Part shown: positions 541-60,545 of the stretch, piece after piece | Layout of the letters: every line of letters begins with the position of its first letter | Numbering within the stretch: position 1 is the stretch's first letter | DNA from: Candidatus Aminicenantales bacterium | GTDB lineage: Bacteria; Acidobacteriota; Aminicenantia; Aminicenantales; Saccharicenantaceae | DNA: 64,000 nucleotides | Direction of reading: 5' to 3' | NCBI GenBank assembly: GCA_050015275.1 | Contig: JBEKBS010000009.1 | Coordinates: forward strand, 719 to 64,718 | Translations under genes and position numbers: made by a program | Notes under the pieces: generated by a model | What the model saw: only the letters and a program-made list of their open reading frames with translations | What the model was told of the DNA's origin: nothing | The model's database searches: none

Positions 541-618
541 ACACGGCATTCTGATCGGGACAAGGGGGAGGGGCCATGCGGCCCTTTCCCCTCCGGTCCC
601 TCTAGGAGGGGGAAGGGC

Positions 619-870: not shown

Positions 871-1033
871 ATCCTGGCGCCCTGCCATAATATCCAGGCC
901 CTGACCCCACCAAAGAACATCAAGGCGATGTAGGGTACGGGGTGCGAGAATAGATGGATATAAACACGGCGGCGCGCGAATGAGCTGTAACAACGGCAAT
1001 CTGCCGGCGCAGAGTGTTTGATACGGAAATGGA

Positions 1034-18392: not shown

Positions 18393-18417
18393 TCAGGGGC
18401 CGGAAGGAGAACCGGGG

Positions 18418-26430: not shown

Positions 26431-26779
26431 TGGCACCTCACCACAGCCGATTCGGCCTCGCTGCGGGCTTCTAACCCTTGATTCTTCGCCGGATGTCGAC
26501 TTGAGATCACAGTTTGTTCCTGTCCCATACCTCAACACTTCCGTCCCGCACAGGATAATTCCGGCCGCGGATCGAGGTCAAGGACAAACACCTAAACATG
26601 TCCACACGGCGAAAGCCGGAGCCTGTCCGCTTAATTTAGTTTCGCTTTCGTCCTCCGTGGCGCCTGAGCGATGCCTCGCAACATGGCATGCACAGCCATC
26701 CCTAAACCGAACAGGCATGCTTAGCCGGCGGTCTTTGTTCGCCAAGACCAGGTGGATTATAATATTGGGGGAGGATGAG

Positions 26780-31656: not shown

Positions 31657-33219
31657 TCAATTCACGATATCGGCCTTCTTAATCTTGAATGACCAGGCAT
31701 AATGACAGGGGAGCTTATCGGGCATCTTATCGATCACAAGAGCACCACCCTCCTGGTGCCAGGGCAGATTTTTAGCGTACCCGAGCATATTGATGGTCGA
31801 CCCTGGTGCTAATTTGACCCCCGGGATCACCTCTCCTGCGGCCGGCATTTTCAGTTCGATGGCATAAAGATAATCATCTTTCTCCGTGAACCTGATCGTG
31901 CCGGCTTTCCAGCTATCCACGCCGCCCTTGGAAAAAGGAGCCGGCTTGGACCCATAGAGAGCTTCCTTATTGACTTTCATCCAGGCACCTAGCTTTTTCA
32001 GCATCTCGATCTGGTACTCTGGAATTGTCCCGTCGGCTCTGGGTCCGATGCTCAACAGCGTGACCCCATTCTTGCTTGTCCTGTCCACAATGTCGTCCAC
32101 GAGGTCGCCGGCATTTTTTTCAATCTCTTCGGACGTCATTTTAATGGTGTACTCATAGGCCCAGGAACATCCCGGCAACGGCATATCGGTCTGCCATTTG
32201 CGGATATCGGGTTCCTCTTTGCCGCCGCCTTCGAAATCCAGCGGTGAACAGGCGAGAGGCAGCTCCTGGCCCTTATGCGTCACGACAACGCCCAGACCCA
32301 ACTTCTCGTTCTTATTGAAATAATAGGCCATCATCTTGGGTATATAATCCGCGATGATCTCCTTATCCATGCAGCCTTCCAGCCAGATCATTTGGGGATT
32401 GTACTTATCGATGACCTCCATCGCTTTGTTGAAAAATTTTAGACACATCCTATGACGCGCGCCCGGTGAATCGTGCGGCTCGCCGTAGAGCCCGTAAAAA
32501 TCGGGATTATTGACATCGACGCCTTCGGGGCAGCCCTTTCTTCCTCCGTTGAAGTAGTTCCAGTTATTGCATCCATTATTGTGGAAGGTGACGATGAATT
32601 TCACGCCCTGCGCTTTCAAGGCCTTGGCGATGTCACCGACGATGTCCCGATGGGGGCCCATATTGACGGAATTCCACATCGTGACTTTGGAATCCCACAT
32701 CGAGAAGTTATCGTGGTGTTCAGCGCAGGGTCCGGCAAAATCCGCTCCGATCTCCTTGAAAAGCCTGGCCCATTCAGCGGGATTCCATTTCGCCGCCGTC
32801 AGCAGAGGAATGAAATCCTTGTAGCCGAACTGAGTGAACGGATCGCCCCAGACCTCCAGATGATGCTTATAGCAATCTCCCCCTCGATAATCAGGTCCGT
32901 TATCCGGCTCATACATGCTGCTCCCATACCAGCAGCTGTATCCGTAGCCGGCCACGGAATACGGCCCCCAATGCCAGTAGATTCCGAAAACGGCGTCCTC
33001 AAACCACTTGGGCATCTCCCACTGGGCCAGGGATTCCCAGTTCGTTTCATATGTTTTTTGCCTCATTGCCGGGATCATCTTTTCCCGGTCGAGGGACACC
33101 GAATCTCCCCGGGGGCCGGCTCCCTGGCCGGAGGACATTCCCAGAAATGATAATGCCAAGATCACGGATGACAGGAGTTTCGTGATATTCGCGCAATTGC
33201 GTCTTTTCGTTTTACTCAT
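31657..33219 (-). CDS. GH29 alpha-L-fucosidase, secreted
   Basis: GH29 motifs are present: WFEDAVFGIYWHWGPYSV, HHDNFSMWDS and LLSIGPRADGTIP. A signal peptide follows MSKTKRRNC; an alternative start MMRVM lies at 33231. Local GC is about 53-57% against about 65% background. Confidence 0.85.
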   Translation of the reverse strand: MSKTKRRNCANITKLLSSVILALSFLGMSSGQGAGPRGDSVSLDREKMIPAMRQKTYETNWESLAQWEMPKWFEDAVFGIYWHWGPYSVAGYGYSCWYGSSMYEPDNGPDYRGGDCYKHHLEVWGDPFTQFGYKDFIPLLTAAKWNPAEWARLFKEIGADFAGPCAEHHDNFSMWDSKVTMWNSVNMGPHRDIVGDIAKALKAQGVKFIVTFHNNGCNNWNYFNGGRKGCPEGVDVNNPDFYGLYGEPHDSPGARHRMCLKFFNKAMEVIDKYNPQMIWLEGCMDKEIIADYIPKMMAYYFNKNEKLGLGVVVTHKGQELPLACSPLDFEGGGKEEPDIRKWQTDMPLPGCSWAYEYTIKMTSEEIEKNAGDLVDDIVDRTSKNGVTLLSIGPRADGTIPEYQIEMLKKLGAWMKVNKEALYGSKPAPFSKGGVDSWKAGTIRFTEKDDYLYAIELKMPAAGEVIPGVKLAPGSTINMLGYAKNLPWHQEGGALVIDKMPDKLPCHYAWSFKIKKADIVN

Positions 33220-33428
33220 GACGCGCATCATAAGTTCAAGTTTGGGCCGTGTCAACAGACGGAGTATATGGGAAACTGTGTGAACCTCTGCCAAGGCAAA
33301 TTATCAATTGGAGAAGATCAATGAATTGCAGGTCAAGGGAAGACCCTGAACGTTTCACGATATGGGGCCAAGATCAAATAAGAAGAGCTTCGATGCGCCC
33401 GCCATCGAGAGGTCCTTCAAAAGCCGCC

Positions 33429-41518: not shown

Positions 41519-43471
41519 ATGACAAAAAAACTGATCTCCGCGGCGCTTCTCGTTGGCATGATCGCGGTCTTCGCCTCCGCGCAGGTCCGGGTCGAGTTCA
41601 GGAAGACCGGGGAAACATACACGCTCTACGGCAGCGGGCAGCCGGTCGGGGCCCTGGTGCCTTTCAAGGAGGCGGGTTTCGCCGCCACGGACGGCGTCCT
41701 GGAGGTCCAGCCCGGGCTCTTCGAGTGGACGCGGACCTTCACTTACAACGGCGAGGGTTATGTCCGGCCGGCCCGGCTGACGATGGAGCTCGAAACGTTC
41801 TATGCGTCGAGATACAGTCTCATCCCCGCCGTGTCGTACAACGGAAACCCGTGGGGCAAGGGCTTGGAGCCCAAGGGTTTCAGAAAGGACGGACAGCCCT
41901 GGACCTTCGCCTATCACAGGGTCTCCGTCCCGGGCGCGACCTATTCCGAGTCCGAGGCCTGGTCGGTGGCTCTCTTCAGCCGGCCGGGGCAGCTCGTCTG
42001 CGGCTTCTCCTGCTCCCTCGACCCGGGCCAGGACAGGACCGTCCACCGTCTCGTCTGGCCGGAGGAAGAGACGCCCGTTGTCTACGCGGCCCGCGACCTT
42101 TATGCGGACGCGTATCATGAGGACTTCCGCATGTCCCGCGGCCAAACGGTCACTCTCAAGGCGTGGATCGTCGCCGGCCCCGTGACGGTGCCGAAGCACG
42201 GCTGGCACGCTCTCTTGGACGCCGCCTGGCAGCTCAGCTCCCACCCCGTCTCGCCGCGGTTCGAGCCCGAAGACCTCTGGGAGCTCGGCCTCGAGTTCGC
42301 CAAAGACAGCCTCTGGGCCGAGGAACAGTCCTTCAAGGGCTTCTCCATCGGCCTCAGCTGGGACGGCGCGAAATGGGCCCAGCGCCCGTCCTGGAAATAC
42401 GAGATCGGCTGGGCGGGCCAGAACGCCTCGCTCTCGAACTCTCTCCTTCAGGACTACCTGAAGACTGGTGACCGGACGTCCCTCGATCTCGGGATGAAAT
42501 GCCTCGACGCCTGGGCCCGCAACGCGCGGCTCAAGAACGGCCTCTTCCGCTGCCATTTTGATTATCTGATCGGCCTCGGCGACCCGAAGACGGAGGTCCA
42601 GGACGCCTGCAACCTGGGCCAGGCGGCCCAGGGCTTCTTCGAGGCCTGGGACCTGGCCGCGAAATGCAAGCTCCCGAGGCCGGAGTACCGCGAGATCGCC
42701 GTCGCCATCTGTGATTTCGCGCTCAAGGCCATGCAGCAGGACGGCCGGATCGGCAAGGCCTGGACGAATGACGGCCGGCCCGTCGACCCCGAGGGGACGA
42801 CCGGCGCCTACCTCATCCCGCCCCTCCTCACGGCCTACCGTCTCACCCACAAGCCGCCGTATCTCGAAGGCGCGGAGAGGGCCTTCGCCTTCTACATCGG
42901 GGATTTCATCAAGAACGGCTTCACCACGGCCGGCGCCCTGGACACGGATTGCATCGACAAGGAGTCCGCGACGCCCCTGCTCAAGGCCGCCTTGGACCTC
43001 TACGAGCTCACGGGAAAGGAAACGTACCTACGGTGGGCCGAGGATGTCTCCTATTACGTCGCCTCCTGGCAGTGGCACTACACTGTGCCTTATCCGGCGG
43101 GGACCGTCCTCAACGGGCTCGGCTATGACACCTTGGGCGGGAGCGCCGTCTCGACACAGCATCACCACCAGGACCCCTTCGCCGTGATCATCGTCAACGA
43201 TTGGATCAAGCTGGCCGCCCTGACCGGGAAAACCGTCTGGCGGGATCGGGCCCTGGCCGCCTGGGCCAACGGCACGATCGGGATCTCGAACGGTGACCTC
43301 GTCGTCCTCGGCAAGAAACGGCCGGCCGGAAGCCAGGACGAGGGGTTCCTGCACACCCGTTGGCTCTACCCCTCGAGCGTGAGCCAGTGGCTCGTCGCCT
43401 GGCCGACGGCGTTCCGGCTGGAGACGCTGCGCCTGGCCCCGAACTGGCGGGTTTTCGAAAAGAAGCAATAG
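41519..43471 (+). CDS. Secreted hypothetical protein with an N-terminal beta-sandwich and a C-terminal Trp-rich alpha-helical domain (possible (alpha/alpha)6 glycosidase or lyase)
   Basis: SD AAGGAG precedes ATG 41519, followed by a signal peptide. No named family is recognised. The upstream part of the ORF-track ORF is non-coding. Confidence 0.55.
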   Translation: MTKKLISAALLVGMIAVFASAQVRVEFRKTGETYTLYGSGQPVGALVPFKEAGFAATDGVLEVQPGLFEWTRTFTYNGEGYVRPARLTMELETFYASRYSLIPAVSYNGNPWGKGLEPKGFRKDGQPWTFAYHRVSVPGATYSESEAWSVALFSRPGQLVCGFSCSLDPGQDRTVHRLVWPEEETPVVYAARDLYADAYHEDFRMSRGQTVTLKAWIVAGPVTVPKHGWHALLDAAWQLSSHPVSPRFEPEDLWELGLEFAKDSLWAEEQSFKGFSIGLSWDGAKWAQRPSWKYEIGWAGQNASLSNSLLQDYLKTGDRTSLDLGMKCLDAWARNARLKNGLFRCHFDYLIGLGDPKTEVQDACNLGQAAQGFFEAWDLAAKCKLPRPEYREIAVAICDFALKAMQQDGRIGKAWTNDGRPVDPEGTTGAYLIPPLLTAYRLTHKPPYLEGAERAFAFYIGDFIKNGFTTAGALDTDCIDKESATPLLKAALDLYELTGKETYLRWAEDVSYYVASWQWHYTVPYPAGTVLNGLGYDTLGGSAVSTQHHHQDPFAVIIVNDWIKLAALTGKTVWRDRALAAWANGTIGISNGDLVVLGKKRPAGSQDEGFLHTRWLYPSSVSQWLVAWPTAFRLETLRLAPNWRVFEKKQ

Positions 43472-43573
43472 CCCGGGCGTTGCGATGGCCGATGACCGGA
43501 CGGCGGGTCCCCTGCGCGGCGAGACCGACTTCGCTGCGGACCCCGCGGCATTCCTGAAGCGAGGGAGGGTCCG

Positions 43574-46500
43574 ATGGCGCGCATGATGACAAGGATCCCG
43601 ATCCTGATAACCCTGTTCGTTCTTACTTCCGGGCTTGTCCGGCCGGCCGCCGCCGACGCGCAAGCTCAAGCCCGTCCCGTCGCCGGGATGCGCACGCCGC
43701 CCGCGCCGCTTTTTCGCGATCCCGTCTACGACGGCGCGGCCGACCCCTCCTTCATTTGGAACGACGCCGAGCGGGCTTGGTGGGTCTTTTACACGAACCG
43801 CCGGGCCAACGCGCCCGACGCCCAGGACGGCGTCCGCTGGTGCCATGGGACCGACATCGGCATCGCCTCCTCTCCGGACGGCCGGACCTGGGCTTATCGG
43901 GGCACGGCCAAGGGGCTCGAATTCGAGGCGGGCCGCAACACCTTCTGGGCGCCCTGCCTCGTCGAGCATTCCCGGACCTACCACATGTTCGTTGCCTACG
44001 TGCGCGGCGTGCCCGCCGACTGGAGCGGCGAGCGGCACATCGTCCATTACACGAGCCGCGACCTCGTCCACTGGACGTTCAGTTCCATTCTCGCGCTGAG
44101 CTCGGCCCAGGTCATCGACCCCTTCGTTTACGCCAAGCCGTCCGGCGGCTGGCGGATGTGGTACAAGGACGAGGCCCACGGCTCTCACATTTATGCCGCC
44201 GACAGCGAGGACCTCGACCGTTGGGCCGTCAAGGGAGCGGTCGTCACCGCCGGAGCCCAGGAAGGGCCGGCCGTCTTCTGGTGGCGGGGCGCCTATTGGA
44301 TGCTCGTCGACCGCTGGCAGGGGATGGCGGTGCTGCGTTCGGACGAACTCGAGCGCTGGACCGAGCAGCCGGGGACGATCCTCGGCGTGCCGGGCACCCG
44401 GCCCGACGACGCCGACATCGGCCGCCACGGCGAAGTCGTCGTCCAGGGGCGCGACGCCTACCTCTTCTATTTCACCCATCCGTTCGGACCGAAGGACCAT
44501 GTCCGGCCCGGCCAGCACCGCTCCTCGTTGCAAGTGGCGAAGTTGGAGCTCGCCGGCGGCCGGATCGTCTGCGACCGGAATGAGCCGTTCGACCTCGAGC
44601 TCGGGCCGCCGAGCGGATTCCGGCCGGCGAAAAGGTTCGAGAGCCGTCTCGATCTCCTCACGTCCGACGCGAAGCTGGCCGCGGCCTTCGTCTGGGCCAA
44701 GGGGCAGGCGCTCGACTACGTCTTTCCGGCCGCCGTCTACGGCGATCCGGCGGGCGACTGGTACGAGGCGGCCCTGCCCGGCCGGTTCGCCTTCTGCATG
44801 CGCGACGTCTCCCACCAGGCCACCGGGGCCCATGTCCTTGGTCTGGCGGATTTCAATCTGAACATGCTGAGGAGATTCGCGGCGGGCCTCGCCTCCTCCC
44901 GGCGCCACGCCTCGTTCTGGGAGATCGACAAGTGGGGCAGGCCGGCGCCCGTCGATTATAAGAACGACCGGGATTTCTGGTACAACCTGCCCGCCAACTT
45001 TGATGTCGTGGACGCCTGCCGGCGCCAGTATCTATGGACGGGGAACCGGGCCTACCTCGACGACCCCGCGTTCGCCTCGTTCTGCCGGCAGAGCGTAACC
45101 TCCTATGTCGACGCGTGGGACAACGACGGAGACGGGGTTCCCGACCATCGGACGGTCGACGGGAACCGCGGGCTGGGGAGCTACGACGAGGGTCCGCTGT
45201 CGGACCGGACGGCCATCGGCGCCGACCTCATCGCCGCCGAGGCCCGGGCGTTCCTGTCCTATGCCGAGATGCTGAGGATGAGGGGAGATGTCGAGACGGC
45301 GGGAAGCCTCGAAGCCAGGGCCGCCGGCCTGCAGCGGGCGTTTTACAAAAAGTGGTGGAGTCCGGAGCTCGGGCGTTTCGCCGGGCTCATGCTCCAGGGC
45401 GGGGCTCTCAATTTCGAGGACTTGTTCTGGTCCGGCGTTTTCCCGCTCTATTTCGGCTTCCTCCGTCCAGGTCCCGAGCGCGACATGACCCTGAATCGGA
45501 TCGCCGGGGGGGAGGCGGAGGGCATCGAGATAGAGTCTTACCTGCCCGAGGTCTTTTATCGTTTCGGTCGGGACGAGGCGGCCTACACCGAGGTTCTGAA
45601 GCTCTCGGACCCGGCGAAGAAACGGCGGGAATACCCGGAGGTTGCCTTCGCCCTGGTCGGCGCCATCGCGACGGGTACGATGGGCGTCGAGCCGGAGTCC
45701 GGGGGGCGCGCGGTCGCGACGCGATCGCGGCTGACGGCGGAGGCGGCGTGGGCCGAACTCGTCCACGTGCCCGTCTTCGGGAACGTGATCGATATCCGTC
45801 ACGAGGGCCGCGACCGTTCGGCCCTGACGAATCGATCGGGCCCTGCCCTCGCCTGGCGCGCGGCGTTCGATGGACGGTGGAAGGAGCTGACAGTGGATGG
45901 ACGTCCGACGGAGGCTTTTCAGGGACCGGACGAGGCTGGACACGCCACGAGCTGGGTGACCATGGAAGTTCCGCCAAGCCGGACCGTCACCGTCGCGGTC
46001 GGGGAAGGGCGCGTCTCGGCCGGCCGCCCCCGATGGGACGAAGCCCGGGCTCGGGCCTGGGCCGAATGCAGGCCTTGGGTCCTCGGCTGCAACTATGTTC
46101 CCAGGACGGCCATCAACACCCTCGAGATGTGGCAGTCCGAGACGTACGACCCGAAGACGATCGACCAGGAGCTCGGCTGGGCCGAGTCCCTCGGCTTCAA
46201 CGCCGCCCGGGTCTTCCTCCATTACGCCCTATGGGAGCAGGATCCGGAGGGCTTCACCCGGCGGCTTGAGGACTTCCTCCGGATCGCCGACCGGCATCAC
46301 ATCGGGACAATGTTCGTCCTCTTCGACGACTGCTGGAATGACTCGTTCAAGCTCGGCCCGCAGCCCGTGCCTCGACCCGGCGTCCATAACTCCGGCTGGG
46401 TCCGCTGCCCGGGGACGAAAATGATCGCCGATCCGTCCCGCTGGGGGATCCTCGAGAGCTACACGAAGGGCGTCATCGGCGCGTTCGGGAAGGACCGTCG

Positions 46501-48397
46501 CGTCCTGGCCTGGGACCTCTATAACGAGCCGGGCGGGCCGAAGACCCTGCCTCTCCTGAAAACGGTCTTCGAGTGGGCCAGGTCGGCGGCGCCCATCCAG
46601 CCCCTGACCTCCGGCATCTGGGACGACGCGAAGGACCTCGAGGAGCTCAACCGCTTCCAGGTCGAAAACTCCGACATCGTCTCGTTCCACGCCTATTTTG
46701 ATGAAGCGGGCACGAAGAAAAGGCTGGAGGCGCTGAGAGCTCTCAAGCGGCCTCTCATCTGCACGGAATACATGGCCCGGACGGCCGGAAGCCGGTTCGA
46801 CAACATCCTTCCCCTCTTCAAGGCCGGGGACGTCGGGGCGATGAGCTGGGGCCTCGTGAGCGGCAAGACCCAGACGATCTTTCCCTGGGGGTCGAAAGAA
46901 GGGAGCCCGGAGCCGGCGGTCTGGCACCACGACATCTTCCGGCCGGACGGGCGGCCGTTTTCGCAGGCCGAGGTCCAGGTCATCCGGCAAGCCGCGGGCT
47001 TCGATCTCCCGGGAAAGGAAAAAGCGGCGGGGGGGCACGTCCTGTCCTCTCCTCATCAGGCCTGGACCCTGATCCCGCCCATGGGCTGGAACAGCTGGGA
47101 TTCGTTCGGCCAAGCCATGACGGAAGTCGAGGCCAAGGCCAACGCCGATTTCATGGCGGCGAAGCTCGCCCGTTACGGATGGCGGTATATCGTTGTCGAT
47201 ATCCAGTGGTATGAGCCGCAGATGATGGGGCCGGATTATCCGCTCGAATCGCGGGCCGACGTGGATGGGTTCGGCCGCTTCCGTCCGGCCGAGAACAAGT
47301 TCCCGTCGGCGGCGGGGCGCAAGGGCCTCAAACCGCTCGCGGATTACGTCCATGGGAAGGGACTCAAGTTCGGTCTCCATATTGTCCGCGGCATTCCCCG
47401 GAAAGCCGTCGAGCAAAACACTCCGATCGAAGGCACATCCTATCGCGCGGCCGACATCGCCCTCAAGACTGACTATTGCCCGTGGAACGTGGACCAGTGG
47501 GGCGTCGCTGTGACCAAGCCCGGCGCCCAGGAATGGTATGACTCGTTCTTCCGCCTCCTCGCGTCCTGGGGCGTCGATTTCGTCAAGGTCGACGACATCT
47601 CGCAACCTTATCGGGCCCGGGAGATCGAGATCCTCCGCGCGGCCATCGATAAGTCCGGACGGCCCATCGTCCTGAGTCTCTCGCCCGGGCCGACGCCGAT
47701 CGAGAAGGCCGGCCACGTTGCCCAAAACGCCAACATGTGGCGCCTTCTGAGCGACCTCTGGGACTACTGGGACCAGGTCCTGCCGGCCTTCCGGAAGCTC
47801 CACGATTGGGCGCCTTACGCCGGGCCCGGCCATTGGCCCGACCCCGACATGCTTCCCCTTGGCCATCTCCGCTATCTGCCGCCCGGCTGGTCACAGAACA
47901 AGACGACGAGCCGGGAATATTTCGCCATGACCGCGCACGGGGGCCGCGAGGACGTCCCGAATTTCCTGACCCGCGACGAACAGCGGACGGTGATGACGCT
48001 CTGGACGATCGCCCGGTGCCCGCTGATGTTCGGCGGCCATCTGCCGGCGAGCGACGACTGGACGCTCTCGCTCATCACGAACGAAGAGGTCATCGCCGTC
48101 AATCAGCGGAGCCGGGGCAACCGTCAGCTCTTCAACGCGAACGGCCTCGTCGCCTGGGTCGCCGGGAGCGAGGACGAAGGGGCGCGATATCTCGCCGTTT
48201 TCAATGCCGCCGACAGGGGAGAAAAAGACGCCGCGGCCGGACTCGGGATCAGCGTCCGTCTCTCGGACCTCGGGTTCCCGGGACCGTGCGAAATCCGCGA
48301 CCTCTGGGCGAAAAAGGACCTCGGCAGTCTTGCCGGTGAGTTCGCGCCGGTTATCCCGTGGCACGGGGCCGGACTGTACCGGATCAAGGGAAAATGA
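43574..48397 (+). CDS. Giant (1607 aa) multi-module secreted CAZyme with four modules from N to C
   Basis: One uninterrupted frame is protein-like throughout. Module 1 (aa 35-340) is a GH43/GH32-type five-bladed beta-propeller (DPSFIWNDAERAWWVFYT, WAPCLVEH..YHMF). Module 2 (aa 340-810) is an alpha-helical, six-hairpin-like domain. Module 3 (aa 810-1140) is a clan GH-A TIM barrel (WDLYNEPG acid/base, ICTEYMA nucleophile region). Module 4 (aa 1160-1607) is a GH27 alpha-galactosidase (MGWNSWDSFG, VKVDDI). Confidence 0.75.
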   Translation: MARMMTRIPILITLFVLTSGLVRPAAADAQAQARPVAGMRTPPAPLFRDPVYDGAADPSFIWNDAERAWWVFYTNRRANAPDAQDGVRWCHGTDIGIASSPDGRTWAYRGTAKGLEFEAGRNTFWAPCLVEHSRTYHMFVAYVRGVPADWSGERHIVHYTSRDLVHWTFSSILALSSAQVIDPFVYAKPSGGWRMWYKDEAHGSHIYAADSEDLDRWAVKGAVVTAGAQEGPAVFWWRGAYWMLVDRWQGMAVLRSDELERWTEQPGTILGVPGTRPDDADIGRHGEVVVQGRDAYLFYFTHPFGPKDHVRPGQHRSSLQVAKLELAGGRIVCDRNEPFDLELGPPSGFRPAKRFESRLDLLTSDAKLAAAFVWAKGQALDYVFPAAVYGDPAGDWYEAALPGRFAFCMRDVSHQATGAHVLGLADFNLNMLRRFAAGLASSRRHASFWEIDKWGRPAPVDYKNDRDFWYNLPANFDVVDACRRQYLWTGNRAYLDDPAFASFCRQSVTSYVDAWDNDGDGVPDHRTVDGNRGLGSYDEGPLSDRTAIGADLIAAEARAFLSYAEMLRMRGDVETAGSLEARAAGLQRAFYKKWWSPELGRFAGLMLQGGALNFEDLFWSGVFPLYFGFLRPGPERDMTLNRIAGGEAEGIEIESYLPEVFYRFGRDEAAYTEVLKLSDPAKKRREYPEVAFALVGAIATGTMGVEPESGGRAVATRSRLTAEAAWAELVHVPVFGNVIDIRHEGRDRSALTNRSGPALAWRAAFDGRWKELTVDGRPTEAFQGPDEAGHATSWVTMEVPPSRTVTVAVGEGRVSAGRPRWDEARARAWAECRPWVLGCNYVPRTAINTLEMWQSETYDPKTIDQELGWAESLGFNAARVFLHYALWEQDPEGFTRRLEDFLRIADRHHIGTMFVLFDDCWNDSFKLGPQPVPRPGVHNSGWVRCPGTKMIADPSRWGILESYTKGVIGAFGKDRRVLAWDLYNEPGGPKTLPLLKTVFEWARSAAPIQPLTSGIWDDAKDLEELNRFQVENSDIVSFHAYFDEAGTKKRLEALRALKRPLICTEYMARTAGSRFDNILPLFKAGDVGAMSWGLVSGKTQTIFPWGSKEGSPEPAVWHHDIFRPDGRPFSQAEVQVIRQAAGFDLPGKEKAAGGHVLSSPHQAWTLIPPMGWNSWDSFGQAMTEVEAKANADFMAAKLARYGWRYIVVDIQWYEPQMMGPDYPLESRADVDGFGRFRPAENKFPSAAGRKGLKPLADYVHGKGLKFGLHIVRGIPRKAVEQNTPIEGTSYRAADIALKTDYCPWNVDQWGVAVTKPGAQEWYDSFFRLLASWGVDFVKVDDISQPYRAREIEILRAAIDKSGRPIVLSLSPGPTPIEKAGHVAQNANMWRLLSDLWDYWDQVLPAFRKLHDWAPYAGPGHWPDPDMLPLGHLRYLPPGWSQNKTTSREYFAMTAHGGREDVPNFLTRDEQRTVMTLWTIARCPLMFGGHLPASDDWTLSLITNEEVIAVNQRSRGNRQLFNANGLVAWVAGSEDEGARYLAVFNAADRGEKDAAAGLGISVRLSDLGFPGPCEIRDLWAKKDLGSLAGEFAPVIPWHGAGLYRIKGK

Positions 48398-48408
48398 CCG
48401 GGAACCCC

Positions 48409-50256
48409 TCAGATGAGGTCTCTGAGGGTCACCGTCACTTCCCGGGTTTTGCCGCCCGATCCGACCCGCAGCCGGATTTTGGTGCCGGGCGGATTGGACG
48501 TGAGCATTCTTCGCGCCGCGGGCAGTGAAAGCTCGGCCGGCGTCTTCCCGCCGATCGCCACGATGAGATCGCCCTCTCTCAGCCCGGCTTCGGCCGCCGG
48601 TCCCTTGGGAAGAACGGACACCACCTTGAAGGCTCCGTTCGCCAGGTTCAGCCAAAGGCCGGCGCGATCATAGTCATCCGGCCGGGAGTAGTTGGCGTTC
48701 CGTTCGAAGATCAGCCGCTGCCTGTCATAATCGAAAATGACGTTGAACCGCTTCAGGACGCCGCCGCCGACGTTCCCCGCCACGTACGGATCCGTGAAGG
48801 CCCCCTTCGTCTGCGCGGAAATTTCCGTCAGAGGGTTCTCGACGGTGACGTTCCCCAGTTTGAGGACTTGCGCCCGCGTCACGAGCCCCCGGGCCGGGCC
48901 GCCGACGCCCCAGCCGGTGATCGTCTCGACTTTCGGCTTATAGCGCGCTTTCAGGCTGTGCTTCTCGGCGAACGGAGCCAGGACGGTCAGCGAGGACCGG
49001 CTCCCGGTGTCGATGTCGAACTTCCCGGCCACGCCGTCGATCTCGCCCTCGACCTGAGGGATCTGACCGTTGAACTTGAACGGGACAGCCGTCCCCGGGC
49101 CGGCATAAGAAAACGCCGACGGCACTGTCAGTGTCAGCCGGCCGTGTTCGTAGTCGATGCTCACCACGAATCGCTTGAAGACTTCATAGCCGACAAGTCC
49201 CTGGATGGGCATGCCTTCGACATCTCCCAGCGCTGAGAGGGAGAAAACGGCGAAGATCTGGTTCGAGAGCGTGGCCTCCCCGATCTGGAGAGCCTGGACT
49301 TTCGTCATGCCGACATCCTCGGATTTTTCTCCGACGCCGCGGCCTTGGAGGGCCCCTTCGGATTTCAATCCGAGCTCCCTGGCCAGGTCGACGCTGACGA
49401 TGTTTTGGCCTCCCGTGTCGCAGAGGAGCCGGAACGGCCCTTTCCCGTTGAGAACGGCCTGGACGTAAATATGATTGTTCAGGAGCTCGAAAGGCACGGT
49501 CGTCGAGCTCCGGCCTCCGGAGATCGCAAAATCCGGAGGCGGCGGGCCCGGCATCCGGAACATCTCGTCGTTCAACGGGGCATTCAATTCCACGCTTTCG
49601 ACCGTGATGAGCTGGTCGTAACGGACTTCGCCGTTGGTCGAGCGCGATAAATAGGGAATTTTAATTCCGGAGATTTCGCGGTAATCGGAGAAGTACGTCG
49701 TCCGGGTTTCCATGGCCGTTTTTTCGACGATGCGGTCCAGGAGATAGGTTCTGGCATCGATCCACAGGTCGAACGCCCGGCCGCCCCGGGGGGTGATCCT
49801 GATAACGTGGAATTGACGGTCGTTTTGCTGTTTCAGGCCCGGATACTCGACGGCACCTTCCCAACGTTCCGGGAACCAGTAGGCCAGCGAGCGCCGGAAG
49901 GCGTCGTTGACGGCTTCCTCCTTCGCATCGCCTCCTTCCTCGGCGTGGGAGTGCTTCGAGGGGTCCTGGGACCAGACCGTCCGGCCGTCGAACCCCTCGG
50001 CTCCGGTGAATATCCCCAGCTGAAAGCTCGTGAAGGACCGTCCCTTCAGAATGTCCTCCCAGGACTCGCCCGTCCCCTTCATGCCGCCGACCGCGAGGGC
50101 GACCTTGGAGTGCATGGAAAAAACCGAATCCCAGGCCGCTCCTCCGGAGGCGTCCTTGGCTCTTGCCAGGATATCCTTCGGGTTCTCCAGCGCCTGGCAG
50201 ACGACGGCGACAAGCCATAAGAGGGACAGAAAAAGCAGGAATTTTTTAGTTTTCAT
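48409..50256 (-). CDS. Secreted tandem retropepsin-like aspartic protease (two D-T-G motifs) with a C-terminal PDZ domain
   Basis: A signal peptide follows MKTKKFLLFLSLLWLVAVVCQA. There are two clan AA aspartyl protease cores (LLCDTGGQNIV and FDIDTGSRSSL). The C-terminal PDZ has GLREGDLIVAIGGKTP. Confidence 0.7.
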   Translation of the reverse strand: MKTKKFLLFLSLLWLVAVVCQALENPKDILARAKDASGGAAWDSVFSMHSKVALAVGGMKGTGESWEDILKGRSFTSFQLGIFTGAEGFDGRTVWSQDPSKHSHAEEGGDAKEEAVNDAFRRSLAYWFPERWEGAVEYPGLKQQNDRQFHVIRITPRGGRAFDLWIDARTYLLDRIVEKTAMETRTTYFSDYREISGIKIPYLSRSTNGEVRYDQLITVESVELNAPLNDEMFRMPGPPPPDFAISGGRSSTTVPFELLNNHIYVQAVLNGKGPFRLLCDTGGQNIVSVDLARELGLKSEGALQGRGVGEKSEDVGMTKVQALQIGEATLSNQIFAVFSLSALGDVEGMPIQGLVGYEVFKRFVVSIDYEHGRLTLTVPSAFSYAGPGTAVPFKFNGQIPQVEGEIDGVAGKFDIDTGSRSSLTVLAPFAEKHSLKARYKPKVETITGWGVGGPARGLVTRAQVLKLGNVTVENPLTEISAQTKGAFTDPYVAGNVGGGVLKRFNVIFDYDRQRLIFERNANYSRPDDYDRAGLWLNLANGAFKVVSVLPKGPAAEAGLREGDLIVAIGGKTPAELSLPAARRMLTSNPPGTKIRLRVGSGGKTREVTVTLRDLI

Positions 50257-50307
50257 GGCCCGACTCTCCAAGACGATTTTTTCACATTCCCAATAAGAAA
50301 TACGATT

Positions 50308-55216: not shown

Positions 55217-56335
55217 ATGGCCCCCAATCCTTTTCTCGGAGTTTTTCTTCACGCCCTGGGCGGGTTCGCGGCCGGGAGCTTTTACATCCCCTACAAGAAA
55301 GTCCGCGGCTGGGCCTGGGAGACCTACTGGCTGACGGGCGGGTTCTTCAGCTGGATCATCACGCCCTGGATCGTGGGGCTCCTGACCTGCCCCGATCTCA
55401 TCAGGGTCATCAGGTCCGCTTCGCCCGGGACGCTCCTCTGGACGTACCTCTTCGGCGTGATGTGGGGGGTCGGCGGGCTGACCTTCGGCCTGAGCATGCG
55501 CTATCTCGGGCTGTCGCTCGGAATGGCCCTGTCGCTCGGCTTCTGCGCCGTCTTCGGCACCCTCGTCCCGCCGCTTTTCCACAGCCAGCTCGCGGGCATG
55601 GTCTCAACCCCCTCCGGCCGGATCGTCATCCTCGGGATCCTCGTCTGCCTGACCGGGATCGCCATGTGCGGCAGCGCCGGGATGAGGAAGGAACGGGAGC
55701 TCTCCGACGCCGAGAAACGGGCCTCGATCGCCGAGTTCAGCTTCGTCAAGGGCGCCTGGGTGGCCACGTTCGCCGGCGTCATGAGCTCCTGCATGGCTTT
55801 TTCCTTCGCTGCCGGGAAGCCCATCGCCGCGGCCGCGGTGGCGAACGGGACGCCCCCTCTTTTCCAGAATTTTCCGGTCCTGATCGTTGCCCTCTTCGGG
55901 GGGTTCACGACGAATTTTCTCTGGTGCGTCACGCTCAGCGTCCGGAACAGGACGGCAAGGGATTATCTGCGGGTCCAGGAGCCCATAACGCCGGCGGCGG
56001 AAACGGCTGCGGCCGCATCCACCCCGTTTCCCTCGCGCTCCCCGCGACCGTCGCTATTCTCCAACTATCTTTTCTCGGCCCTCGCCGGCATGACGTGGTA
56101 CTTCCAGTTCTTCTTCTACGGGATGGGCACGACGAAGATGGGGAAGTATGACTTCTCGAGCTGGACCATCCACATGGCCTTCATCATCACCTTCAGCAGC
56201 CTGTGGGGGATCTACTTCCACGAATGGAAGGGAACGGGCCGGCCGACGCGCCGGCTGGTCGTGGCCGGGATCGTCATCCTCATCCTTTCGACGGTCGTCG
56301 TCGGGGTCGGCAACTACGTCGCCACGCTCAAGTAG
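55217..56335 (+). CDS. rhaT: L-rhamnose-proton symporter (RhaT family, DMT superfamily)
   Basis: It is collinear with E. coli RhaT as I recall it: FYIPYKKVRGWAWETYWLTGG against [21 protein letters not shown], and MTWYFQFFFYGMG against MWYLQFFFYAWG. An upstream promoter-like TTGACT-N15-TATATA is present. Confidence 0.85.
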   Translation: MAPNPFLGVFLHALGGFAAGSFYIPYKKVRGWAWETYWLTGGFFSWIITPWIVGLLTCPDLIRVIRSASPGTLLWTYLFGVMWGVGGLTFGLSMRYLGLSLGMALSLGFCAVFGTLVPPLFHSQLAGMVSTPSGRIVILGILVCLTGIAMCGSAGMRKERELSDAEKRASIAEFSFVKGAWVATFAGVMSSCMAFSFAAGKPIAAAAVANGTPPLFQNFPVLIVALFGGFTTNFLWCVTLSVRNRTARDYLRVQEPITPAAETAAAASTPFPSRSPRPSLFSNYLFSALAGMTWYFQFFFYGMGTTKMGKYDFSSWTIHMAFIITFSSLWGIYFHEWKGTGRPTRRLVVAGIVILILSTVVVGVGNYVATLK

Positions 56336-56391: not shown

Positions 56392-57495
56392 TCAGTCCGC
56401 GGACTTGACCCGGTCCCAGACCTTGATGTAGAGGGCGTTGGCTTCCTTCAGGTTGGCGATGATCTCGCTCTTCGCCAGGATTTCCTGTTTCACGAAGATG
56501 CCGGGATTGTTCCGGATTTCGGGATCGAGAAGCGGATAGGCGTCCTTGTTCGGGCAGAGATAATAGATGAAGTCCGTGTTCTCGGCGGCGACCTTCGGGT
56601 CGTGGAGGAAATTGATGAAGGCGTGGGCCAGGGCGACCTGGTCGGAGCTCTTCGGGATGACGAGGTCGTCGCAGGAGATGATCGTTCCCTCCTCGGGGAT
56701 GAAGAAGCGGACGTCCGGGTTTTCCTTCCGGACCTGGAAAACGTCGCCGTTCCAGGCGTGGACCAGGAGGAACTCGCCGGAGGCCAGGCCAAGCTTGTAC
56801 TGCTCGTTGTCGAACTTGGCCAGGTTCTTCTTCCAGCGCAGGAGGACCGCCTCGGCCTCGAGGAGCTCTTTTTCGTTGACGGTGTTGATGCTGTATCCCA
56901 GGGACTTGAGGGCGGCCCCGATCGATTCCCGCATGTCGTTGAACATGGTCATCCGGCCCTTGAGGTCCTTCCGGTCGAACATTTCCCAAGTCGGCCTGAT
57001 ATCCTTCACCCGGCCTTCGAGGTAGGCGATCCCGCTCCAGACGAGCATGTAGGGCACGGAATGGTCCATCGTCTTGTCGACCGTGATCTTGAGGAATTCC
57101 GGGTCCACGTGGCTGATATTCGGCAGCCGGGCATGGTCGAGCCGGAGGAGCATGTCCTGGTCGAACATCAGGCTGACCATATAGCTCGTCGGGGTGAGGA
57201 CGTCGTATCCGGTCGCGCCCGCCTTGAGCTTGGCGTACATGGCCTCGTTCGATTCGAAGGTGTCGATGACGACGCGGCAACCGTTCTCTCGCTCGAACCT
57301 CCGGACGAGCTCGGGCTTGATGTAATCGGCCCAAGTATAGACGCTCAGGACCGGCCTCGATTTTCCGCAGCCGCCGGGGAATAGGAGCGACAAAGCCAGA
57401 AGGACAAGGATCGTGCGGGGCGGGGCCGGCCGGGTTCCGGCCGGGACGGCCGGCAAGCCTGGGGAACGCCTGTTTCCGGTTTCGGGATCCCTCAT
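56392..57495 (-). CDS. potD: Spermidine/putrescine ABC transporter periplasmic substrate-binding (lipo)protein
   Basis: The PotD/PotF-family pattern is present (VYTWADYIKPEL..FE...G..V..D.FESNE, DVLTPTSYMV). A signal with LLFPGGCG is present. The upstream part of the ORF-track ORF (to 58350) is an artefact. Confidence 0.8.
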   Translation of the reverse strand: MRDPETGNRRSPGLPAVPAGTRPAPPRTILVLLALSLLFPGGCGKSRPVLSVYTWADYIKPELVRRFERENGCRVVIDTFESNEAMYAKLKAGATGYDVLTPTSYMVSLMFDQDMLLRLDHARLPNISHVDPEFLKITVDKTMDHSVPYMLVWSGIAYLEGRVKDIRPTWEMFDRKDLKGRMTMFNDMRESIGAALKSLGYSINTVNEKELLEAEAVLLRWKKNLAKFDNEQYKLGLASGEFLLVHAWNGDVFQVRKENPDVRFFIPEEGTIISCDDLVIPKSSDQVALAHAFINFLHDPKVAAENTDFIYYLCPNKDAYPLLDPEIRNNPGIFVKQEILAKSEIIANLKEANALYIKVWDRVKSAD

Positions 57496-57524
57496 CGCGG
57501 AATCCCTATTTAACCCCAGAACGG

Positions 57525-58302
57525 CTATCTTTTCAACCGGGCGAGCTTCTGGCTGGCGATGACGGCCGTGAGGGTCACGGCCAGGAGGAGGGTCGAAAGG
57601 GCGTTGATCATCGGCGGGTTTCCATACTTGATCATGCTGTAGATCCGGAGGGGGAGGGTCGTCGAGCCCGGGCCGGCGACGAAAAAAGTGATGACGAAAT
57701 CGTCCACCGACAGGGTGAAGGCCAGGAGACCGCCCGCCGCCAACCCAGGGAGAAGGAGCGGGAGGAGGACCTTGAGGGTGCTCTGCCACCAGTTGGCGCC
57801 GAGGTCCTGGGCGGCCTCGATGAGCGAGAAATCGAAATCCTGGAGCCGGGCCAGGACGACCATCGCGACATAGCTCACCGAGAACGTCACGTGGGCGAGG
57901 AAAATGGTGAAAAGGCCGAGGCCGGTCCCGGCCGCCACGAAGGCCATCAGAAGGCTGATGCCCATCAGGATCTCGGGGACGACGAGAGGGGTATAGATCA
58001 AGGTGTAATGGACCCGCTGGAGGCGGCTCCCGGCGTAACGGTGCAGGGCGAAGGCGGCCGCCGTGCCCAGGACGAGCGAAACGGCCGTCGAGCTCACCGC
58101 GATGATGAGCGTGTTGCGGACAGACAGCCAGATCTCGGGGGAGTGGAAGAGCCTTGCGTACCAATCGAGGGTGAATCCCTGCCAGCTGCTCGAGAACCGG
58201 GCTGCGTTGAAGGAATTGACGACGAGGATGAGGATCGGCAGGTAGAAAAAGACGAGGATGAGAACGGTCATGGCCAACGGAAAACGGCTCCTCTTCACGG
58301 CG
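57525..58302 (-). CDS. potC: Spermidine/putrescine ABC transporter permease
   Basis: The product is PotC-like (LPILILVVNSFN; EAA loop IEAAQDLGANWWQ). The probable GTG start at 58302 has GGGGAGG 4 nt upstream, matching the E. coli PotC N-terminal length. An ATG alternative lies at 58271. Confidence 0.8.
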
Positions 58303-59380
58303 CCTCCCCGATGATGATCTCCGCCTTGTCTTTCTTCCGTTGGCGGACAAGCACGGCGATGAGGGGCGCCAGGACGGCCAGGATCAGGACGGCCGAGAGG
58401 GCGGCCGCGTGCGGAAGGTTGCGGTCGACGAAGACCCTCTGGGCGATCTTGTTCCCGACCATCTCGCTGGCCGGCCCGCCGACCAGGTCGGGGATGATGT
58501 AGGAGCCCAGGGCGGGGATGAAGACGACCAGGACCGCCGTCACGAGGCCGCGCCGGATCCCCGGGAGGAAGATCTTCCGGAAGGCCTGGAAGGGCTTGGC
58601 GCCGAGGTCCCGGGCCGCCTCGACCAGCCGGAAATCGAACTTCTCCGCGGCCGCGTAGATCGGAAGGATGGTGAACGGCAGGAAGGTGTACACCATGACC
58701 AGGACAACCGCCGCCGGATGATAGAGGAGCGTTGTTTGGGGGCCGGCGAGGCCGGTCGCCTCGAGGACTTTCTTGATCAGCCCCTCGGGGTGAAGGAGCG
58801 ATCTCCAGGCGAAGACCCGGACGAGGAAGCTCGTCCAGAACGGCACGATGATGAGCATCAGGAGCCGGTTCTGCCATTTTTCGGGGGCCCGGGCGATGAA
58901 GTAACCTGTCGGGAGCGAGAAAAGGATGCAAAGCATGGTGGTCACGAGGCTTATCCAGACCGTCCGCCAGGCGATGACCAGGTATCCGGCATTCCCCAGC
59001 GCGCGGATCGTTTCCAGGGTCCAGCCCGCCCCGATGCCGCCGTAAGGGTTAGCCGGGCGGAAGGCGATGGCGAAGACGAGCAGGGTCGGAATGACGATGA
59101 AGAGGGTGAGCCAGAACAGGGTCGGGAGCGAGATCAGCCACTCCTGGAACCTGCGCCGGCGGGGAGCTGTCTCGCCTCTTACTGGATCCGTCCGGACGCG
59201 GGCAGTCCCGGCTCCTGCCCGATTTGTCCAGATACGGGCAGCACCGTCTCTTGGCGGGGCAGCCCCGCTTCTTAGCGGGGCAGATTTCGAGGAGCGAACA
59301 TCAGAAGCGCGGCGGAGCGGCTCGGAGTCGCGCTTCTGGGAAATATCGGGATCAAAGGACTCTCTGCGACGGAGACTCAT
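58295..59380 (-). CDS. potB: Spermidine/putrescine ABC transporter permease
   Basis: The core is PotB-like (LIIVPFWTSFLVRVF; EAA loop VEAARDLGAKPFQ). The only in-frame ATG is at 59380, giving an 84-aa Arg/Ser/Ala/Pro-rich N-terminal extension. The true start may be a non-ATG codon nearer the first TM helix. Confidence 0.7.
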   Translation of the reverse strand: MSLRRRESFDPDISQKRDSEPLRRASDVRSSKSAPLRSGAAPPRDGAARIWTNRAGAGTARVRTDPVRGETAPRRRRFQEWLISLPTLFWLTLFIVIPTLLVFAIAFRPANPYGGIGAGWTLETIRALGNAGYLVIAWRTVWISLVTTMLCILFSLPTGYFIARAPEKWQNRLLMLIIVPFWTSFLVRVFAWRSLLHPEGLIKKVLEATGLAGPQTTLLYHPAAVVLVMVYTFLPFTILPIYAAAEKFDFRLVEAARDLGAKPFQAFRKIFLPGIRRGLVTAVLVVFIPALGSYIIPDLVGGPASEMVGNKIAQRVFVDRNLPHAAALSAVLILAVLAPLIAVLVRQRKKDKAEIIIGEAP

Positions 59381-59381
59381 C

Positions 59382-60545
59382 CTATTCCCCGTTGAAGGGC
59401 TCGCCGACCTTCTGCGGCGGGACGGCAAGCAGGCCCTCGTCGGCCTTCCGGAAATGGTCGAGCATGAAACCGTCGTCGGCGTGCCACCAGATCCAGGCCT
59501 CGTCCTTCCAGCGCAGGGGTTTCTCGTCGAGGAAATAGCGGGCGTGCTGGCGGAGGACCTGGATCCTGTAGCCCGCGACCCGGACCCAGTATTTCGTGTT
59601 CGAGCCGAGGTAGATGACGTCCTCGACGACGGCCGGGAGGTAATTCCGTTGCGGCTCTTCCTCGGGCCGCTCATGGGAGATATGGATCTTCTCGGGCCGG
59701 ATGCTGAGATAGATCGGCTGGACGGGCTGGAGGTGCTTGTCGTTGAAACAGAGGATCCCGGGCAGGCCCGCGATGTCCAGGCGGCAGTATTCGCGGTCCG
59801 GGCAATCGAGGACCCGGCCCTTGAGGAAATTCGTGTCGCCGATGAAGGCGGCGACGAAGCTCGTCCGGGGAGATTCATAGATCTCGGCCGGCGCCCCCAC
59901 CTGCTCGATCCGGCCGCTGTCCATGACCGCGATCCGGTCGCTCAGGCTCATGGCCTCGGCCTGGTCGTGGGTGACGTAGAGAAAGGTGATCCCGACCTCG
60001 TCGTGGATGAGGTCGAGCTCGATGAGCATCTTCTGGCGGAGCTTGAGGTCCAGGGCCGCGAGCGGCTCGTCGAGAAGCAGGACGTCGGGCCTGTTGATCA
60101 GGGCCCGGGCGACGGCGACCCGCTGTTTCTGGCCGCCGGAGAGGAGGTCGGGCCTCTTGTCGGCCTGGTCCGTCATCTGGATGAGGTGGAGCATTTTGTC
60201 GACCTCGGCGCCGATCTCCGTTTTCGGCCGCTTGGCGATGGCCAGGCCGAAGGCGATATTGTCCCGGACCGTCATGTGGGGGAAGAGGGCATAGCTCTGG
60301 AAGATCGTGTTGACCTTGCGCTCGTTCGGGGGGAGGTCGGTGATGTCCCGGCCGTCGAGGAACACGCGGCCGGCGTCGGGCTCTTCGAACCCGGCCGCGA
60401 GACGGAGCATGGTCGTCTTGCCGCAGCCGCTCGGCCCGAGGAGAGAAAAGAATTCCCCCTTCTTGATCTCCAGGGAAACGTCGCCGACCGCCTGGATGGT
60501 TCCGAAACGCTTGGAGACGCCGCGGAACTCCAGGAACTCAGCCAA
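59382..60545 (-). CDS. potA: Spermidine/putrescine import ATP-binding protein
   Basis: Walker A GPSGCGKTT, Q-loop, signature LSGGQKQR and Walker B LLLDEPLAALD are present, with a C-terminal regulatory/TOBE-like domain. Confidence 0.9.
   Translation of the reverse strand: MAEFLEFRGVSKRFGTIQAVGDVSLEIKKGEFFSLLGPSGCGKTTMLRLAAGFEEPDAGRVFLDGRDITDLPPNERKVNTIFQSYALFPHMTVRDNIAFGLAIAKRPKTEIGAEVDKMLHLIQMTDQADKRPDLLSGGQKQRVAVARALINRPDVLLLDEPLAALDLKLRQKMLIELDLIHDEVGITFLYVTHDQAEAMSLSDRIAVMDSGRIEQVGAPAEIYESPRTSFVAAFIGDTNFLKGRVLDCPDREYCRLDIAGLPGILCFNDKHLQPVQPIYLSIRPEKIHISHERPEEEPQRNYLPAVVEDVIYLGSNTKYWVRVAGYRIQVLRQHARYFLDEKPLRWKDEAWIWWHADDGFMLDHFRKADEGLLAVPPQKVGEPFNGE

Follow-up and report, generated by a model that had tools for sequence, protein, structure and literature searches.

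Secreted polypeptides with several catalytic domains are known from Caldicellulosiruptor, from Bacteroidota and from the metagenomic MAGHs (PMC6626019), and the presumed gain in such multi-activity glycoside hydrolases (GHs) is proximity or debranching synergy. They are rare yet recur across datasets (PMC6626019), and most of those described combine two catalytic domains with carbohydrate-binding modules (CBMs). Two single-module systems are also relevant here. Ch_Gaf159A of family GH159 comes from a thermophile; it is intracellular, consists of a single domain and lacks a signal peptide. Its residues D19, D142, E190 and H244 were shown to be essential or important, and mutation of D19, D142 or E190 abolishes activity (PMC9278983). 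The family was founded on activity against pNP-beta-D-Galf (PMC6442616), and its characterised members favour this substrate over pNP-alpha-L-Araf. In GH27, the beta-L-arabinopyranosidases Geobacillus Abp (GsAbp; 4NX0) and CpArap27 are single-module proteins. GH27 Arap-ases act on arabinogalactan, and an Ile (or Glu) at the position of Abp Ile67, in place of the Asp of alpha-galactosidases, is a specificity determinant (PMC4598101).

The window, that is, the whole 64,000 nt stretch of DNA analysed from a Candidatus Aminicenantales contig, encodes a 1607-aa protein that likewise carries several glycosidase-type modules (M1 to M4) on one predicted-secreted polypeptide (Table 1), with a similar presumed gain. 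It differs from most described multi-activity GHs in having four folds and no CBM, and in that its ancestral split state is still visible in sister genomes. An earlier reading of the letters alone (the sequence-only reading) had called the architecture uncommon, and this agrees with the rarity of multi-catalytic glycosidases. Such enzymes are already known; the combination of GH159, six-hairpin, GH5-like and GH27 modules has not been described previously.

Table 1. Features of the four-module glycosidase gene and its surroundings, in positions of the window; residue numbers refer to the 1607-aa protein.
Feature	Position	Strand	Evidence
Gene U, 650-aa predicted-secreted protein	41519..43471	+	Co-oriented, 103 nt upstream of fusion ORF
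Shine-Dalgarno-like sequence AGGGAGGG	43562..43569	+	4 nt 5' of ATG, read from sequence
Four-module, predicted-secreted glycosidase ORF, 1607 aa plus stop	43574..48397	+	Complete, ATG start; ORF listing and translation
Putative Sec signal peptide MARMMTRIPILITLFVLTSGLVRPAAA, about residues 1-27	43574..43654	+	Inspection by eye
M1, GH159 five-bladed beta-propeller, residues 40-347	43691..44614	+	phmmer to 7zei Ch_Gaf159A, E 4e-97
M2, (alpha/alpha)6 six-hairpin barrel plus C-terminal beta-sandwich, residues 356-809	44639..46000	+	
Fusion junction/linker VGEGRVSAGR, residues 810-819	46001..46030	+	Comparison with 13 split loci and fused orthologs
M3, clan GH-A (beta/alpha)8 barrel, GH5-like, residues 820-1150	46031..47023	+	
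M4, GH27 barrel plus Melibiase_C beta-sandwich, residues 1158-1604	47045..48385	+	Pfam; alignment with 4nx0 Abp

Reading frame and fusion of two genes

The gene is a single ORF, so the uninterrupted 4.8-kb coding frame noted earlier stands. GC contents at codon positions 1, 2 and 3 are 0.655, 0.495 and 0.846, a pattern typical of high-GC coding sequence, and GC3 is even over all four modules (0.82-0.89). In three long antisense ORFs (43028-44908, 45032-46222 and 46229-47866), GC content is highest at codon position 1 (0.83-0.86), mirroring the sense frame; they are therefore shadow ORFs, the artefacts they had been taken for. The N-terminus of the protein (MARMMTRIPILITLFVLTSGLVRPAAADA) was judged by eye to be Sec-signal-like, and orthologs have equivalent hydrophobic N-termini. 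All of the motifs quoted beforehand (DPSFIW, WAPCL, WDLYNEPG, ICTEY and MGWNSWDSFG) are present. The four modules occupy the chain with linkers of just 5-20 aa between them, and a Pfam scan found no CBM, in keeping with the absence of binding spacers already remarked on; an NCBIfam scan of the whole protein returned no family. The chain genuinely combines four glycosidase-type modules, each with a different fold.

In at least 13 other Aminicenantes MAG loci the same modules are divided between two genes, A (M1-M2, 806-815 aa) and then B (M3-M4), separated by 0-130 nt and each with a signal peptide of its own. At the position of the A/B boundary, the window protein and its orthologs have a linker of 12-20 aa instead, and this junction stands where the split loci have a stop codon, an intergenic spacer and a second signal peptide. 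By this comparison, the window protein arose by in-frame fusion of two adjacent genes, with loss of the second signal peptide. The step that joined the co-oriented genes A (GH159 and six-hairpin) and B (GH5-like barrel and GH27) removed the stop codon of gene A, the spacer and the signal peptide of gene B. The fusion is lineage-restricted, and the two genes are still separate in most Aminicenantes; M1-M2 proteins of about 806 aa form more than 100 clusters. Elsewhere, M1 is fused directly to M3 in one protein (P0417), and GH27 adjoins X-M1 fusions in Verrucomicrobia and KSB1 (L043 and L045).

Among sister genomes, versions with split genes, with three modules and with four modules exist side by side.

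An assembly chimera, or an error that erased the stop between two genes, could also produce a long ORF at a locus where most related genomes have two genes, and a close relative at 90% identity, L032, seems to be in fragments. The breaks in L032 are, however, spread over seven frames, as expected of indel errors in that assembly, and the uniform GC3 also argues against an artefact. Independent assemblies from ENA, JGI and Logan contain the identical 1607-aa protein, which was found on at least 23 contigs (31 index blocks), and full-length orthologs (P0002-P0007, 76-82% identity) keep the four-module layout. At least six orthologs in this identity range, as well as two MAGs (L005 and L006), encode the same architecture in a single frame, in which the linkers have diverged and there is no second signal peptide. 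Taken together, the independent contigs, the orthologs and the two MAGs rule out chimerism and missed frameshifts; an artefactual origin, given practically no weight, was rejected, and the fusion proposed in the sequence-only reading is retained.

The four modules

The propeller module M1 had been described as GH43-like, but its Pfam GH43 score is below threshold. Residues 41-343 align instead to residues 3-307 of Ch_Gaf159A (7zei_A) over 303 residues, with an E value of 4e-97. The catalytic residues D57, D182 and E230, and the metal-site residue H285, correspond to D19, D142, E190 and H244 of that enzyme, all four being conserved. Full-length similarity and these catalytic and metal residues place M1 in GH159. 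The two proteins have in common the five-bladed propeller of clan GH-F and the four key residues, but M1, unlike Ch_Gaf159A, is the N-terminal module of a predicted-secreted four-module protein, and comes from a different phylum.

The C-terminal module M4 belongs to GH27, as had been proposed, with Pfam scores of 84.9 bits for Melibiase_2 (cut-off 23) and 39.4 bits for Melibiase_C (cut-off 22.9). It matches Geobacillus Abp with an E value of 1e-133 and about 60% identity across the catalytic barrel and beta-sandwich. The nucleophile D1340 (in FVKVDDI) corresponds to Abp D197, a position marked by the D197A mutant entry 4nxk, and the acid/base D1394 (in MWRLLSD) to Abp D255, which we take to be the acid/base position of GH27. 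The narrower label of alpha-galactosidase was rejected on the strength of the Abp match and of I1210 (in VVDIQW), which aligns with Abp Ile67, where alpha-galactosidases have Asp. By its sequence, M4 falls within the beta-L-arabinopyranosidase clade of GH27. Like GsAbp and CpArap27, it carries nucleophile, acid/base and Ile determinant; it differs in a 17-residue insertion (about residues 1433-1449) not found in Abp and in being fused 3' of three other modules. This clade membership makes galactomannan, which had been among the suggested substrates, or raffinose-type targets unlikely.

The description of M3 as a clan GH-A TIM barrel was borne out, both for the fold and for the catalytic pair, E985 (acid/base, in NEP) and E1065 (nucleophile, in CTEY). 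The NEP/TEY pair and further residues are invariant in 50 homologs from several phyla. The nearest systems are in GH5, notably its mannan-clade subfamilies and the GH5_13 furanosidases, with 15-19% identity to any solved GH5 structure. The Pfam GH5 model (PF00150) gives 15.1 bits, below its gathering score of 23.5; homologs of M3 carry precomputed PF00150 matches of unstated strength. M3 is termed GH5-like, and possibly belongs to GH5_13. The family is very abundant (more than 8000 close homologs), and no CAZyme context was seen around three randomly chosen stand-alone M3 genes.

The alpha-helical module M2 had been thought six-hairpin-like, and this agrees with its fold, nearest to that of the GH78 alpha-L-rhamnosidases; its polar core is strongly conserved. 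As in GH78, a six-hairpin domain is followed by a beta-sandwich; the N-terminal beta-domains of GH78 are absent, and identity to GH78 structures (3cih from Bacteroides thetaiotaomicron, 6gsz, 3w5n and 2okx) is 11-16%. The GH78 model PF17389 (Bac_rhamnosid6H) gave no Pfam match even at E < 10, and the GH78 matches of a PDB profile search reached just E 0.015-0.027. The GH63/MGH1-like model PF22422 scored 19.3 bits (cut-off 27) over only 85 residues, and single-sequence PDB searches with M2 and M3 returned noise only. A putative GH78 domain (in P0014) considered as an hhalign bridge to M2 was dropped, its region being unlike canonical GH78. Many Asp, Glu, Arg, His and Trp residues of M2 are invariant in a comparison with 24 homologs (48-71% identical), and so is the motif MRDVSHQ (409-415); its conserved acidic residues include D411, D551, E652, E659 and E689, which are candidates for a catalytic role. 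Stand-alone secreted proteins of the M2 type also exist (450-500 aa).

Catalytic residues are intact in M1, M3 and M4, the three modules in which they could be mapped, as the sequence-only reading expected. If only M1 and M4 were enzymes, then M2 and/or M3 would be dead scaffolds or binding modules derived from glycosidase folds, and the position of M3 under the Pfam GH5 cut-off, and the lack of a family-level match or assignable catalytic residues in M2, would be in line with this. The invariance of the M3 acid/base, nucleophile and other residues across 50 homologs speaks against it, as do the invariant polar residues of M2 and its stand-alone secreted forms, which are typical of enzymes, so that inactivity of these modules is considered quite improbable.

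Substrates and gene neighbourhood

We read the window protein, with a probability of about 0.6, as a secreted multi-activity exo-glycosidase that arose by gene fusion and strips arabinose-type caps sequentially from plant arabinogalactan or pectin. Processive attack on a glycan, as suggested earlier, finds no support: the identifiable modules all resemble exo-acting, cap-removing enzymes, and by this analogy sequential debranching is the better description. Held on short linkers, the four modules would each remove a different non-reducing-end cap. M1, presumably inverting, would remove alpha-L-arabinofuranose or beta-D-galactofuranose, and M4, a retaining enzyme by family, beta-L-arabinopyranose. 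M3 would be a retaining clan GH-A enzyme, either a GH5_13-type furanosidase or another beta-glycosidase, and M2 a six-hairpin enzyme with a fold nearest to alpha-L-rhamnosidases. The enzyme probably acts on arabinose-rich side chains, either of type II arabinogalactan from plants or of pectin. Larch arabinogalactan has beta-L-Arap-(1,3)-L-Araf side chains (PMC10688797). On beta-L-Arap-(1,3)-alpha-L-Araf-, for example, M4 would uncap the arabinofuranose and M1 would then remove it, the fusion keeping such sequential activities together outside the cell.

The same architecture could alternatively be directed at galactofuranose-containing microbial, fungal or lichen glycans, with M1, and also M3 if it is a GH5_13 member, acting as beta-D-galactofuranosidases. 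The founding activity of GH159 fits this, as do the Caldicellulosiruptor GH159 enzymes, whose activity is 2.6- to 3.6-fold higher with pNP-Galf than with pNP-Araf, the Galf-ases found in GH5_13 (B. ovatus; M. tuberculosis GlfH1), and the frequent location of stand-alone M3 genes outside plant-glycan loci. The Ile of M4, however, disfavours galactopyranosides, and its close relative Abp is an arabinogalactan-active Arap-ase. M1 and M3 also occur together in arabinose-centred Bacteroidota loci with GH127, GH51 and GH43 arabinofuranosidase genes, a mutarotase and a galactokinase-like gene, a co-localisation biased by the selection of these loci for matches to both modules. Furthermore, the window encodes GH95 (two copies), GH78, a GH141-like protein, GH29 and the rhamnose permease RhaT, a set that looks plant-pectin-like. 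Galactofuranose-containing targets are accordingly considered unlikely, and plant arabinose caps are preferred.

By tblastn, about 27 Aminicenantes loci have gene U immediately upstream, and U and the fusion ORF are probably in the same operon. Pfam gave only a sub-threshold GH76 match to U, a PDB profile search only spurious matches to ribosomal proteins, and hhalign of U against M2 no match. A more speculative proposal, which we hold only tentatively, is that M2 and U each found a new GH family, and that U, A and B form a self-contained, undescribed system by which arabinose- or rhamnose-capped glycans of plants are dismantled in anoxic peat and sediment. If so, the split and fused forms that occur naturally could serve as a ready test of whether tethering four exo-glycosidases helps in debranching.

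Significance of the fusion

The fusion links the poorly understood M2 and M3 families to GH159 (Araf/Galf) and GH27 (beta-L-Arap), and guilt by association offers concrete substrates to test for these hard-to-assign families. The coexisting versions of the locus amount to a natural experiment on multi-catalytic fusion, with relevance to the engineering of biomass-debranching enzymes. Aminicenantes are common, uncultured inhabitants of peat, sediments and digesters, and the locus suggests that they harvest arabinose-type caps from plant glycans.

A single chain of four glycosidase-type modules

The four-module ORF begins at an ATG preceded by AGGGAGGG, and the hydrophobic N-terminus of its product is a putative signal peptide by inspection. 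GC at codon positions 1, 2 and 3 is 0.655, 0.495 and 0.846, and GC3 stays at 0.82–0.89 in every quarter. In each of the three long antisense ORFs across it, GC peaks at position 1, so these are mirror-image shadows, as the sequence-only reading had supposed in calling them artefacts. That reading also took the product to be one uninterrupted chain. At least 23 contigs (31 index blocks) of ENA, JGI and Logan assemblies carry exactly this 1607 aa sequence, and P0002–P0007 are full-length orthologs (76–82% identity), which together exclude chimerism or a missed frameshift. In the closest genome match (MAG MFD03726.bin.3.73, L032, 7893–12839; up to 90% identical), the gene is split among seven overlapping reading frames, most likely an indel error of that assembly rather than a pseudogene.

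Features of the window and modules of the four-module protein (M1–M4 in residues, all others in nt)
Feature	Position	Strand	Description
Exo-glycosidase genes	1034–3676, 11725–14229, 16095–18392, 18334–20670		2 GH95, GH78 + F5/8 type C, GH141-like beta-helix, MGH1/GH63-like and GH29 fucosidase (this and next row together)
Exo-glycosidase genes	23953–26538, 31657–33294	-	
U	41519–43471	+	650 aa putative secreted protein, signal MTKKLISAALLVGMIAVFASAQ; co-oriented, 103 nt upstream of the four-module gene
Four-module ORF	43574–48397	+	single ORF, 1607 codons, ATG start
M1	40–347		GH159 propeller, clan GH-F-like (match to 7zei)
M2	356–809		(alpha/alpha)6 barrel, then beta-sandwich (predicted structure)
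M3	820–1150		clan GH-A, GH5-like (profile alignment)
M4	1158–1604		GH27 (Pfam Melibiase_2 + Melibiase_C), arabinopyranosidase type
Convergent downstream gene	48409–50271	-	retropepsin-like aspartyl protease, C-terminal PDZ, weak LolA-like region
RhaT	55217–56335	+	L-rhamnose-proton symporter
ABC sugar uptake	56392–59878	-	solute-binding protein, permeases

The proposal of four glycosidase-type modules without carbohydrate-binding spacers held: M1–M4 fill the whole protein, the linkers are only 5–20 aa, and no CBM was detected in it. The propeller, M1, had been called GH43-like and is GH159 instead, matching the crystal-structure sequence of the characterised Caldicellulosiruptor enzyme Ch_Gaf159A (7zei) at E 4e-97, while the Pfam GH43 model scores below its cut-off (28.7 vs 32.2 bits). 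Residues D57, D182, E230 and H285 of M1 align with D19, D142 and E190, which are essential in Ch_Gaf159A, and H244 at its metal site (PMC9278983).

The predicted structure of M2 (pLDDT 91) agrees with the six-hairpin-like module proposed earlier, as does a Foldseek search with the model (3cih, E 1e-13); sequence methods gave no more than sub-threshold MGH1-like, trehalase or GH78 hints. Polar residues are invariant in 24 homologs (e.g., MRDVSHQ at 409–415, D551, E652, E659 and E689) and M2 also occurs alone in proteins of 450–500 aa, so it is read as a putative enzyme outside assigned families.

Neither Pfam (nothing above threshold; GH5 15 bits) nor a single-sequence PDB search matched M3. 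In a 50-sequence profile, its NEP motif aligns with the acid/base motif, and its CTEY motif with the nucleophile motif, of both GH2 beta-glucuronidases and GH5 cellulases, making it a retaining, GH5-like clan GH-A enzyme with E985 and E1065 intact, in keeping with the TIM barrel first suggested. GH5_13 is a candidate subfamily for M3: the structural neighbours of M3 fall in the same region of the GH5 tree as GH5_13, which is placed among mannan-clade subfamilies (PMC3526467) and includes pNP-beta-D-Galf and pNP-alpha-L-Araf hydrolases (PMC6442616). The M3 family is very large (at least 8000 matches); the best 120 of these are mostly stand-alone proteins of ~350 aa from several phyla, with ~55% identity.

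M4 matches Abp, a Geobacillus GH27 beta-L-arabinopyranosidase (4nx0), at E 1e-133. The Abp nucleophile, located as the residue that is Asp in 4nx0 and Ala in 4nxk, corresponds to D1340 of M4, and the acid/base position is kept as D1394. Ile1210, in VVDIQW, aligns with Abp Ile67. Alpha-galactosidases have Asp here and beta-L-arabinopyranosidases have Ile or Glu, and the Ile conflicts sterically with the galactose C6 hydroxymethyl (PMC4598101). Because of the Abp match, the conserved catalytic positions and Ile1210, M4 is by sequence of arabinopyranosidase type; the earlier GH27 assignment stands, and its alpha-galactosidase label does not. A 17-residue insertion, LPPGWSQNKTTSREYFA (residues about 1433–1449, window 47870–47920), follows the conserved PLGH motif of M4 and is absent from Abp and 3cc1. 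As to whether the modules might be binding domains lacking catalytic residues, catalytic positions are intact in M1, M3 and M4, and M2 has invariant polar residues.

Split, partial and fused forms

By its genome matches, the locus belongs to Candidatus Aminicenantes. Among 72 loci in which ORFs were reconstructed, a single four-module ORF was found in two MAGs (L005, L006). At least 13 Aminicenantes MAGs instead carry gene A (M1–M2, 806–815 aa) followed within 0–130 nt by gene B (M3–M4, ~790 aa). Gene B in split loci opens with its own putative signal peptide (e.g., MDRRRALIITLIFVSLSAGA). This leader is absent from the window protein and all fused orthologs, where a diverged linker of 12–20 aa bridges the last M2 strand and the conserved RW..A.AW with which M3 begins. 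The two-module M1–M2 protein is very common (>100 clusters at 90% identity). One Aminicenantes MAG (L014, 16485–18890) has a second M3–M4 gene copy ~3.5 kb downstream of the first.

The fused clade also includes variants that stop after M3 (L007, P0009, P0010) and M2–M3–M4 variants (L008, P0008). Within residues 1–60 of P0008, the first ~17 propeller residues (PPAPLFRDPVFGGAADP) remain directly before M2, a remnant indicating that the ancestor had all four modules and lost M1 through an internal deletion. When residues 405–1604 were searched against 1.84 billion 50%-identity representatives, none of the best 150 combined M2, M3 and M4, confining the four-module form to a narrow clade. The multi-module representatives seen were one direct M1–M3 fusion (P0417, 685 aa) and 10 M3–M3 tandems (660–880 aa; P0281–P0284, P0287, P0299, P0300, P0302, P0319, P0391).

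Genomic context and associations in other phyla

Nearly every Aminicenantes locus (~27) has U immediately upstream of its glycosidase genes, including the two without gene A. U gave no Pfam, PDB-profile or hhalign match, and is a candidate novel glycan-active protein. Exo-glycosidases for plant-type sugars are abundant in the window, a repertoire resembling that for pectin or RG-II-type degradation, and sugar uptake genes lie 7–11 kb downstream of the four-module gene. The product of the convergent downstream gene is an uncommon secreted-protease architecture.

In Bacteroidota, M1 and M3 are separate genes within arabinose-centred loci (GH127, M3, galactokinase-like, GH159, GH51, mutarotase, GH43), a sample biased by recovery through matching two modules. 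X–M1 fusions in Verrucomicrobia and KSB1 have a GH27 gene directly beside them, and one Verrucomicrobia locus has M3 fused to a different six-hairpin module. These recurring associations support a common substrate for the modules. As a caveat, three arbitrarily chosen stand-alone M3 genes were all in unrelated neighbourhoods. Verrucomicrobial locus L052 (5940–16413) encodes three consecutive multi-catalytic fusions: X–GH159-like (1034 aa), MGH1-like six-hairpin + GH65C + M3-like barrel (1139 aa) and GH95 + GH29 + F5/8 type C (1255 aa).

Proposed substrate and significance

The evidence fits best with a secreted set of tethered exo-glycosidases that would trim different caps off one branched glycan. 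Characterised relatives of M4 are active on arabinogalactan (PMC4598101), GH159 hydrolyses alpha-L-Araf and beta-D-Galf (PMC9278983), and larch arabinogalactan is reported to have beta-L-Arap-(1,3)-alpha-L-Araf side chains (PMC10688797). It is therefore plausible, by analogy, that M4 would uncap such chains and M1 would then remove the exposed residue; M3 and M2 might remove further residues, possibly furanosyl and rhamnosyl, respectively. From this we infer an arabinogalactan-type substrate. Characterised GH159 enzymes showed weak activity on arabinogalactan and none on arabinan or gum arabic (PMC9278983), and the Galf activity of the family makes galactofuranose a possible target.

Multi-catalytic glycosidases are documented, among them proteins from metagenomes that have as many as six catalytic domains (PMC6626019), so the fusion is no strong surprise to a CAZyme specialist; compared with these, the window protein is an undescribed combination of four folds without CBMs. 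What is new is that split, three-module and four-module states stand side by side in sister genomes, and that the fusion ties two uncharacterised modules, plus U, to two of known specificity, making the four-module protein useful for function assignment and for studies of enzyme fusion.
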